The notes under the pieces: generated by a model
What the model saw: only the letters and a program-made list of their open reading frames with translations
Told to the model about the DNA's origin: nothing
The model's database searches: none
Source of the DNA: an uncultured Clostridia bacterium
Lineage (GTDB): Bacteria; Bacillota; Clostridia; Christensenellales; UBA1242
NCBI GenBank assembly: GCA_944350015.1
Contig: CALVNW010000003.1
Location: 38,907 to 102,906, forward strand
DNA: 64,000 nucleotides
Direction of reading: 5' to 3'
Part shown: piece by piece, positions 28,159 to 29,898 of the stretch
Numbering within the stretch: position 1 is the first letter of the stretch
How the letters are laid out: every line of letters begins with the position of its first letter
Position numbers and translations under genes: made by a program

Positions 28159-29898
28159 ATGAGTCTAAAGATGAAATTAGTATCAATGATATCTGCGTTT
28201 GTACTTGTAATAGGAATGCTATTAATAGGTGTATTTGCAGTAGAAAGGGTGCAAGTGGATATGGGTGGAAGCATTACCTTTAACGCAGATGATGTCTATG
28301 CTAAGGTTACAGGAAGTGTAGCAAATGCGCAGGTTGCACCAGCGAACTTAGATGTAACCTATTCTGCCACTGGGACAACAGGCAACCCTACAGCGTGGGA
28401 GAGTCTTGACCTTGAGTTTGATAGTTATGCCACACCAATAGTGATATCAATCACGGTAGAGAACCTAAGCACAGAGAGGAGCTTAACAGTAAACTTAATA
28501 GACGCTCTTACCTCTAGTGCGCCAAACCTAGGTAAAGCACTACAAAGAGATAATAGCACGTATACAAGTGGGACAAATATAACCTTAGACCCAAAGGATA
28601 ACGGCACAAGCACAACAACATTTACAATAACCTTGTCAGTAGCTGATCGCAACCAATCTCTCACCAACGCTCAATTTGATTATGACCTTAACCTATTTGA
28701 TGAAAGTGTAACGCCATCAGAAGATGTGGAGATACTAGAAGATTTTATGTTTGATGATAGTGGCAACTTAATCTCATATACAGGCACAGACAGCGTAGTT
28801 ACAGTACCATCTTCATACTCAATGATAGGCGAGCCTACAACAAAATCTCTAGATTTTGAAACGGTTGATAGTACAAATGAATATGCGATGACATTAGTAA
28901 GCTTAACAAATTTTAAGTTAACAACAGACGATGGTGAAGAATATATATTTGAAGACTTCGGAGAAGTGATTTTGTCCTTATATCCTGAAAGCTATTTCCC
29001 TTGCACGATAGAGTATAAAGATTATTCTAATGTTACCTTCACAACAGGCAGTGACTATCAAGTAGAAGGAGTGGTAGGTGCATTTGCATTTAATCAAACA
29101 ATTCAAACAGTTAATCTACCTAATTCTATTAAAAATATAGGCTTTTATTCGTTTATGTCCTCCACTTTAAAGGAGATACCCTTACCAGAAGGTTTAACAA
29201 GTATAGGGATTGCTGCATTTACTGAATGTAGTGGACTTACAAGTATAGCCTTGCCAGAAGGTTTAACAAGTATAGGGAATGATACATTCTATGGTTGCGA
29301 TAGCCTTGCAAGCATTGATTTGCCAGAAGGTTTAACAAGTATAGGGAATTATGCATTCTCTTATTGTAGTGGACTTACAGGAACAGTAACAATCCCTGCT
29401 AGTGTAAACGAGATAGGAGCCAATCCTTTTAGAAGCTGTAGTAACCTAGATGGTATAGCAGTAGAGTCAGAAAATAGTAGTTACTACGTTGAAGGTAATT
29501 GTTTGATAGAGAAATCAACCAAAACCTTAATAAAGGGATTTAATAATTCCACTATACCTAGTGATATTAAAGTAATAGGAGATTATGCATTCGCTACTTG
29601 CAGAGGGTTTACTAGTATAACCTTACCATCAAGTTTAACAAGGATAGGGGGTTATGCTTTCTTTGATTGCTATGACATTACAAGTATAACCTTACCATCA
29701 AGTTTAACAAGTATAGGGGCTAATGCATTCGATGGTTGCACTAATTTAGCCTCGGTAACATTTAAAAATACTGAAGGCTGGAAGAGGTCAACTTCGTCAG
29801 ATATGTCTAGTTCATCGTCTGTCATTGTGACAAATCCTAGCACTAACGCAACTTATCTTAAAAATACCTATGTTAATTATTACTGGCAACGCGGATAA
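28159..29898 (+). CDS. secreted surface protein with a TasA/camelysin-like signal peptide, an N-terminal beta-rich domain and BspA-type leucine-rich repeats
   Basis: MSLKMKLVSMISAFVLVIGMLLIGVFAV N-terminus. About 8 repeats of LPEGLTSIGxxAFxxCxxLTSI. Conserved C-terminal tail ..VTNPSTNATYLKNTYVNYYWQRG. Confidence 0.9.
   Translation: MSLKMKLVSMISAFVLVIGMLLIGVFAVERVQVDMGGSITFNADDVYAKVTGSVANAQVAPANLDVTYSATGTTGNPTAWESLDLEFDSYATPIVISITVENLSTERSLTVNLIDALTSSAPNLGKALQRDNSTYTSGTNITLDPKDNGTSTTTFTITLSVADRNQSLTNAQFDYDLNLFDESVTPSEDVEILEDFMFDDSGNLISYTGTDSVVTVPSSYSMIGEPTTKSLDFETVDSTNEYAMTLVSLTNFKLTTDDGEEYIFEDFGEVILSLYPESYFPCTIEYKDYSNVTFTTGSDYQVEGVVGAFAFNQTIQTVNLPNSIKNIGFYSFMSSTLKEIPLPEGLTSIGIAAFTECSGLTSIALPEGLTSIGNDTFYGCDSLASIDLPEGLTSIGNYAFSYCSGLTGTVTIPASVNEIGANPFRSCSNLDGIAVESENSSYYVEGNCLIEKSTKTLIKGFNNSTIPSDIKVIGDYAFATCRGFTSITLPSSLTRIGGYAFFDCYDITSITLPSSLTSIGANAFDGCTNLASVTFKNTEGWKRSTSSDMSSSSSVIVTNPSTNATYLKNTYVNYYWQRG

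Follow-up and report, generated by a model that had tools for sequence, protein, structure and literature searches.

The window analysed here, a stretch of 64,000 nucleotides (nt) from contig CALVNW010000003.1 of an uncultured Clostridia bacterium, carries four intact genes of a large family of Clostridia surface proteins that has no annotation, together with a gene for a lipoprotein derivative of this family. Three features define the family, namely a specialised signal sequence, a conserved first strand and an immunoglobulin (Ig)-like sandwich of about 160 amino acids (aa), and these are followed by interchangeable adhesin modules, mostly of BspA-type leucine-rich repeats (LRR). As far as structure prediction goes, the nearest solved neighbours of the sandwich are donor-strand pilins and not TasA. 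With modest confidence, the proteins are regarded as lineage-specific adhesins that combine a signal genomically tied to a SipW-class signal peptidase with a pilin-like N-terminal module and that are processed by this peptidase.

All five genes lie on the forward strand. Paralogue A (28159–29898, 579 aa) begins with MSLKMKLVSMISAFVLVIGMLLIGVFAV and consists of the signal (28159–28242), an A-type N-domain (about 28243–28731), a linker, BspA-type LRR and a C-terminal YYWQRG tail. Paralogues B (46043–48247, 734 aa) and B' (59527–60912, 461 aa) share the N-terminus MKSLKVKLVSIVSAFILALSLLIVGVWAVG and an identical signal, which is followed in B by a B-type N-domain and a long BspA-type LRR region, and in B' by an N-domain 61% identical to that of B (tblastn, first 200 aa), a linker and LRR. 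Paralogue C (48720–50087, 455 aa) starts with MKNLRFKLTSAVMAFVIVTSLVIVAVVAV, has a divergent signal and N-domain and ends in a weakly DUF6273-like domain. The lipoprotein (61267–61950, 227 aa) has the lipobox LTAC and lacks the family signal, and its C-terminal half is a B-type N-domain. An earlier reading of this DNA, the original prediction, had quoted the N-termini of the four paralogues, which were found letter for letter in the sequence, and had proposed a fusion to LRR, which is borne out by strong matches to the Pfam model LRR_5 (cutoff 27.7 bits) of A (188.8 bits, E 4e-56), B (272.3 bits, E 6e-82) and B' (99.5 bits, E 2e-28). The DUF6273-like end that it had assigned to C held only in part: four B-type relatives match DUF6273 (best E 1e-19), whereas C itself reaches 16.7 bits (E 0.007) and stays under the cutoff of 23.5.

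A C-terminal tail, (S/T)-N-A-(T/S)-x-L-...-Y-x-x-Y-Y-W-(K/Q)-R, is common to A (29775–29895), B (48130–48244) and B' (60786–60909) and might serve as an anchoring or sorting motif that has so far escaped recognition. No sortase motif or other C-terminal anchor motif was evident when the tails were read by eye, and no pattern search was made.

The relationship between the paralogues becomes visible mainly in profile comparisons. With tblastn, the similarity of A to B and B' is limited to the first ~45–65 residues, and no BLAST-level similarity was found between C and the other paralogues. Over the signal and first strand, the A-type profile aligns with the B-type profile at a probability of 98%, and C matches the B-type profile with 95.8%. 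A local B-type hidden Markov model (HMM) from which the signal peptide had been removed matched C (E 2.6e-5) and residues ~105–224 of the lipoprotein (E 4e-9; hhalign 71%), in agreement with the earlier claim that the domain also occurs there. The 5' DNA blocks of the paralogues are 75–98% identical, and a 300-nt stretch covering the linker and the LRR start is 89% identical between A (28729–29028) and B' (60103–60402) despite their different N-domain subtypes, which points to module shuffling or gene conversion among the paralogues.

When 1.84 billion representative sequences were searched with a profile, 825 clusters (50% identity) reached E ≤ 0.001, and 545 of them E ≤ 1e-10. Among the 150 clusters listed, the match started within the first few residues in nearly all and near residue 35 in two, and total protein lengths ranged from 100 to 1511 aa; complete short forms of 280 aa and 172 aa occur in the related loci L001 and L015, respectively. 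Of 126 representatives, 96 have LRR_5 behind the domain (A-type, 44 of 58; B-type, 52 of 68), and Flg_new_2, PKD_3 and DUF6273 are each present in a few of them. The N-domain has no above-cutoff match in Pfam or NCBIfam, and the source databases hold no names for the family proteins. No model in these two collections and no paper was found that describes the signal and N-domain in front of LRR, which agrees with the earlier statement that the architecture is undescribed. A genome scan with the A3 alignment found the family in two metagenome-assembled genomes labelled 'uncultured Clostridia bacterium'. At least nine loci, L015 among them, lie in one of the two. The genes next to family loci (mur/dcw, SpoIVA and SpoIIGA) indicate hosts that have a cell wall and form spores. 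Family genes of other assemblies frequently appear as two open reading frames (ORFs), one for the N-domain and a following one for the LRR (L004 9747–12378; L005 113–1092), as in protein P0005, which stops inside an LRR repeat and is continued by the next ORF; frameshifts, phase variation in the coding region or assembly errors could account for this.

The signal is more conserved than the domain that it precedes. It comprises 28–30 aa with the consensus M-x-S-L-K-x-K-L-x-S-x-x-S-A-F-x-L-x-L-x-x-L-I-x-G-V-[WFL]-A, and past the presumed cleavage site the first strand follows with the consensus x-I-N-[LM]-x-G-S-V-x-F. Among 161 representatives, two sequences are on average 56% identical in the signal, 40% over the 12 residues that follow and 30% over the remaining domain, and pairs whose domains are merely 16% identical still have signals with 52% identity. 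Ordinary Sec signals show the reverse pattern and are less conserved than the mature domain. A profile of signal plus first strand matches A, B, C and B' and no other ORF in the window, where other secreted proteins carry different signals, such as an ordinary one in an ORF of 4516 aa and the lipobox in the lipoprotein at 61267. The giant ORF of 4516 aa extends over 2888–16438, and its signal peptide reads MRCVMLRRCLKGFSCVALLLLALGLILFVPKVES.

The original prediction had assigned these signals and N-domains to the TasA/camelysin type, which would make the N-modules genuine members of the Peptidase_M73 family with signals of the TIGR04088 class. Every test that was run contradicts this membership. 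Pfam Peptidase_M73 and the NCBIfam models NF046066, TIGR04088 (cutoff 19 bits) and TIGR04089/04090 gave zero matches to A, B and C even at E ≤ 10, whether the whole proteins or the first 200 aa were used, and the first 40 aa alone were unmatched by TIGR04088 and TIGR04089/90 at the same threshold. Among the 126 family representatives, none matched Peptidase_M73 at E ≤ 0.01. TasA as positive control scored 38 bits with TIGR04088 and 513.8 bits with the TasA model, which confirms that the HMM test works. The family profile did not retrieve TasA from all sequences of the PDB, and hhalign of the family against TasA gave a non-significant probability of 0.7%, in which the hydrophobic signal alone was aligned. 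In favour of a kinship, this alignment places the K-K-L...G-x-W-A register on the TasA sequence MKKKLSLGVASAALGLALVGGGTWA, and a protein called X, which is encoded beside sipW in the related locus L016 and is discussed below, matches TIGR04088 below threshold (13.2 bits). The operon logic is also like that of tapA-sipW-tasA and sipW-bsaABC (PMC9674648, PMC11580942). X and its neighbour Y gave zero matches to Peptidase_M73 and NF046066 at E ≤ 10. When the predicted structures of A and B were compared with the PDB by Foldseek, TasA, whose jellyroll is represented by entries 5OF1, 5OF2 and 8AUR, was absent among the best 50 for both models, and pilins stood on top, so that the expected structural likeness to TasA was not found either. 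Scans, PDB profile search, hhalign and Foldseek all speak against TasA membership, which is considered extremely improbable.

The beta-rich domain of about 160 aa that had been proposed to follow each signal is supported by AlphaFold2 models of A and B. The model of B (residues 1–200, predicted local distance difference test (pLDDT) 82.8) has a helix over residues 3–27, a low-confidence hinge at 27–30 and an all-beta sandwich over residues 31–190; the mature part of A (residues 29–194, pLDDT 85.9, predicted template modelling (TM) score 0.83) is likewise an all-beta sandwich. For both models, the top Foldseek matches were chaperone-usher pilins, namely FimA from three species, CfaB, FimG and FimI, with probabilities of 0.9–1.0 for A and 0.54–0.97 for B and E-values down to 7e-5. 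The N-domain is accordingly read as a predicted pilin-like Ig sandwich, which does not yet prove homology to pilins. Could it be a true chaperone-usher-type pilin, either horizontally derived or anciently related? Besides the Foldseek probabilities, the first strand TVNMGGSISF is similar to TVNGGTVHF, the donor strand of FimA, whose sequence was verified. However, TM-scores to the pilins are just 0.29–0.45, with root-mean-square deviations of 8–10 Å, Ig-like sandwiches are widespread, and the Pfam model Fimbrial is unmatched by the paralogues of the window. Since a 28-column profile of the first strand retrieves no pilin from the PDB at E ≤ 10, the likeness of the two strands is regarded as anecdotal. 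The hosts, moreover, are Gram-positive spore formers (SpoIVA, SpoIIGA) and lack the outer membrane that an usher would need; genes for a chaperone or an usher were not noticed, and no systematic search for them was made. Descent from such pilins is therefore judged very unlikely.

A candidate enzyme for the signal is encoded on the reverse strand at 39732–40454. The intact ORF of 240 aa codes for a SipW-like signal peptidase I of the archaeal/endoplasmic reticulum (ER) type, with SGSM and R-I-x-F-H motifs and two transmembrane segments. It scores 56.9 bits with TIGR02228, above the cutoff of 51.85 (58.7 bits for the SipW homologue of L015), so that the signal peptidase class given in the original prediction stands. 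On the Bacillus SipW equivalog NF046067 it reaches 54.5 bits, under the cutoff of 190, and by these scores it is classed as a SipW-class enzyme, not as a SipW orthologue. Its similarity to solved structures is weak and confined to human SEC11A/C. S68 of the SGSM motif and H129 of the R-I-x-F-H motif are invariant across 18 homologues, and we take them to be catalytic by analogy with B. subtilis SipW.

Gene order links the family to this enzyme. In five relatives (L016–L019 and L025), whose SipW is 52–79% identical to that of the window, a gene X (213–225 aa) lies directly upstream of sipW, and the genes Y (~205 aa) and Z (1100–1930 aa) follow divergently. By eye, the N-termini of X, Y and Z read K-x-K-I/L ... 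G-V-x-V-W-A-like, followed by a Q-x-L-x-I-x-N strand. X matches the signal-plus-first-strand profile of the family with E 5e-4 to 6e-6, and intact X matches the family profile in hhalign with 94.6% (E 7e-8), which identifies it as a remote homologue. Y is related to X (97.4% in a profile comparison).

In the window, all three genes are pseudogenes. The remnant of X (40516–41049, reverse strand) covers residues 48–225 of the 225-aa orthologue in L016, its signal-coding 5' end being deleted; that of Y (41102–41452, forward strand) covers residues 93–208 of a 209-aa orthologue and has lost its 5' end as well; and Z (41495–44780, forward strand), a large repeat protein, is split over three reading frames. 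In L016, Z has ~1100 aa, and orthologues of Z give faint matches to Glug and Peptidase_M26_N. Compared with L016, a deletion of ~640 bp, in which positions 41050–41093 of the window replace L016 4421–5101, took the 5' ends of X and Y together with the divergent promoters. The comparison with L016 thus explains the fragments at 40513–41452, in which the original prediction had seen the N-domain: they have no direct match to the family profile, but the intact orthologue of the X remnant is a remote family homologue and Y is related to X, so that the claim is kept in this indirect form. An inversion or shufflon was also considered for the head-to-head fragments and rejected, as there are no inverted repeats to the 5' ends of the paralogues and the deletion explains the arrangement.

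A true family member next to sipW was found in L015, where two genes for N-domain proteins lie directly upstream of sipW, the first for 172 aa (A-type HMM, E 3e-20) and the second for 202 aa (E 5e-14), the latter protein having another kind of N-terminal anchor. The intact state of sipW in the window, where X, Y and Z are dead, suggests that the enzyme probably still has other clients, and the dispersed family would be the obvious candidate.

Several observations weigh against a SipW-processed adhesin family. The link to SipW is drawn from one true-family locus, from remote homologues in five close genomes and from the shared window, and what points to cleavage and SipW dependence of the family proteins is gene order. 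In the window, A, B, C and B' lie 5.6–19 kb from sipW. At most of the dispersed family loci, sipW is absent within 8–10 kb, L015 being the only one among ~18 loci with long flanks, and a scan of metagenome contigs with the A2 alignment found 13 family loci with sipW in the flanks of none, while the same scan with a SipW alignment gave no matches. Y has no detectable direct match to the family profile. In addition, the hydrophobic stretch of 22–24 residues in the signal fits an uncleaved membrane anchor equally well. The dedicated SipW export route of the original prediction is therefore backed by gene order, in L015 and in the X-sipW/Y-Z module, and is weakened by the many dispersed loci that lack a nearby sipW.

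These points lead to the main rival explanation, in which the proteins are ordinary adhesins that are held by a family-specific membrane anchor or exported by a standard Sec signal, with the N-domain as a mere stalk, and sipW serves X, Y and Z alone, its presence in the window being coincidental for A, B and C. The conservation of the signal would then result from a recombining 5' cassette of promoter, leader and signal, or from the function of a transmembrane anchor. Recombination among the copies is indeed seen in the 5' DNA and in the linker shared by A and B'; the hydrophobic stretch can span a membrane, in line with the predicted helix; V-x-A is a standard SPase I site as well; and an anchor at the N-terminus would suit proteins whose C-terminal tails show no motif evident by eye, although no pattern search was made there. 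On the other hand, homogenisation of DNA is insufficient as an explanation, as the protein sequence of the signal is conserved even in genomes that lack the shared promoter block (L035–L039). True N-domain genes lie inside the sipW operon of L015, X has the same type of signal, and sipW has stayed intact while X, Y and Z have died. A single domain of ~5 nm on an anchor would probably also be too short for the Gram-positive wall. The anchor explanation is therefore considered rather unlikely, if still a serious contender, and SipW-processed, pilin-like adhesins remain the favoured reading.

The family genes have also a promoter in common. It is close to the consensus and reads TTGACA-AAAAATGC-G7/8/9-TA(A/G)AAT, with spacers of 15–19 nt and the G run at the spacer end. 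Sixteen such poly-G promoters were found (in the window, L001, L004, L005, L010–L013, L020–L022 and L034), each of them ahead of a family gene. In the window, where all lie on the forward strand, the promoter and structured leader of A occupy 27902–28158 (TTGACA, a 16-nt spacer with G8, TAAAAT; leader 27923–28158), those of B 45726–46042 (G8; leader of about 290 nt, 45747–46042, with a -10 hairpin and a terminator-like hairpin before the ribosome-binding site (RBS)), those of C 48638–48719 (G8; short leader of 54 nt, with the first hairpin only and then the RBS) and those of B' 59209–59526 (T then G7, -10 TAGAAT; 290-nt leader, 59230–59526). The G run upstream of an identical B protein is G8 in the window and L020 and G7 in L021 and L022, and that upstream of C is G8 or G9 between assemblies. 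This makes the poly-G spacer tract a candidate phase-variation switch, against which it has to be said that the differences in tract length are possibly assembly errors.

The long leaders of A, B and B' are conserved and strongly structured. Compensatory changes were found in 4 of 13 pairs of the -10 hairpin, and the B leader forms a much more stable fold than shuffled sequences do (z = -6.7). A second unit of TAAAATAGGGG and hairpin follows in the leader, and then the terminator-like hairpin directly before the RBS; Rfam gave no real match to the leader. Arrays of short hairpins (CCAACCTTAGGTTGG, GCAAACTTAGTTTGC, CGAGCCTTACGCTCGG, CGCCGAAAGGCG and GTTGCCAAAGGCAAC) were observed upstream of the promoters at 27583–27800, 45442–45700 and 48411–48490. 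The same hairpins recur inside an upstream block and from one block to another, are conserved in L001 and could be insulating terminators or REP-like elements.

A mechanism may be proposed from these elements. The proteins would enter via Sec and be retained by the conserved hydrophobic signal until the archaeal/ER-type SipW-like peptidase cuts after G-V-x-A, which would release the conserved N-terminal strand. By analogy with TasA (PMC9674648) and BsaA (PMC11580942), the freed strand might be available for complementation, and the pilin-like module would anchor or oligomerise the adhesin at the surface, possibly through the kind of strand complementation seen in TasA/BsaA or type 1 pili. The shared promoter and leader, with a variable length of the poly-G spacer, may set expression.

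The predicted pilin-like fold and the conserved N-terminal strand are compatible with the adhesin-decorated fibres that had been suggested earlier. In a more far-reaching version, Clostridia would build filaments from SipW-processed, pilin-like subunits joined by N-terminal strand complementation, in which the stand-alone proteins of L015, X and Y form the shaft, the LRR paralogues bear the adhesins and slippage of the poly-G tract picks the adhesin. This version is tentative and held to be improbable so far. If true, donor-strand fibres that depend on an ER-type signal peptidase would be known from three independent lineages, of which this third one would be the first to have phase-variable adhesin modules built in.

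Two further features of the window were noted apart from the family. A protein of 819 aa (54021–56480) matches conjugal-transfer families of mycoplasma integrative conjugative elements (MMCAP2_0566, 92.1 bits, cutoff 90; Mbov_0396, 64 bits, cutoff 70) and lies near a tRNA-Val gene (58575–58650), which might indicate the remnant of such an element. A direct repeat of 57 nt (33415–33471 and 33534–33590, 89% identical, 119 nt apart) stands immediately upstream of tRNA-Leu(CAG) (33594–33677), and its first copy precedes a sequence that was not called as tRNA.

To our knowledge, just a few fibre and matrix proteins (TasA/TapA and BsaA/B) are known as clients of SipW-type peptidases, and in the literature searched no paper was found that joins SipW with leucine-rich repeats. 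The proteins described here would add a large client family, from uncultured Clostridia for which metagenome assemblies are the sole source, that is unannotated, unrelated to the known clients in sequence and predicted fold, and fused to LRR, which may bind host or other surfaces. The signal and first strand provide a sequence signature from which a family model can be built, and dedicated processing of the signal peptide, with possible assembly of Gram-positive filaments, is a testable prediction. The candidate phase-variation switch would act over an adhesin repertoire.

Likenesses to known systems exist at several levels. Phase-variable surface-protein families such as Mycoplasma vlp, whose genes have a homopolymer tract in the promoter spacer, are likewise multi-copy and combine a conserved promoter, leader and signal with a variable exposed part; here, too, the stretch from -35 to -10 contains a homopolymer whose length differs between samples. 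The differences are that the host is a walled member of the Clostridia, that the tract is poly-G in a spacer of 15–19 nt and that switching is a candidate only. To BspA-type LRR proteins (LRR_5), the likeness lies in the C-terminal part of A, B and B', whose modules match LRR_5 strongly, but here a conserved signal and a predicted pilin-like N-domain precede the repeats. With the chaperone-usher pilins FimA, FimG, FimI and CfaB, which are the best structural match, the N-domain shares a size of ~150–160 aa and a G-x-V-x-F-rich N-terminal strand, whereas the low TM-scores, the lack of an HMM match, the lack of an outer membrane and the different signal and peptidase set it apart.

The sipW-bsaA-bsaB-bsaC locus of Clostridium perfringens is likewise clostridial and, like the X-sipW/Y-Z module, groups sipW with genes for two small matrix-type proteins and a large adhesive one (PMC7395162, PMC11580942), the latter being BsaC with a vWA domain there and the large repeat protein Z here. 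BsaA and BsaB differ from X, Y and the family in being remote homologues of TasA (TIGR04090), and neither isopeptide residues nor an involvement of type IV pili is in evidence here. In the published model, the subunit is held by its signal until strand exchange and is then cleaved by SipW (PMC7395162, PMC11580942). From tapA-sipW-tasA of Bacillus subtilis, the family differs in that it has no relation to the TasA jellyroll in sequence or fold, its signal fails TIGR04088, the module is mostly N-terminal in large LRR adhesins that are dispersed and multi-copy, and it is known from genes alone. Both systems have a gene for an ER/archaeal-type peptidase beside those for small secreted beta-sandwich proteins (PMC9674648, PMC10151520), a similar signal layout (K-K-L ... 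G-x-W-A) and a conserved strand right after the cleavage site, which in TasA is the donor strand (PMC9674648, PMC10151520).

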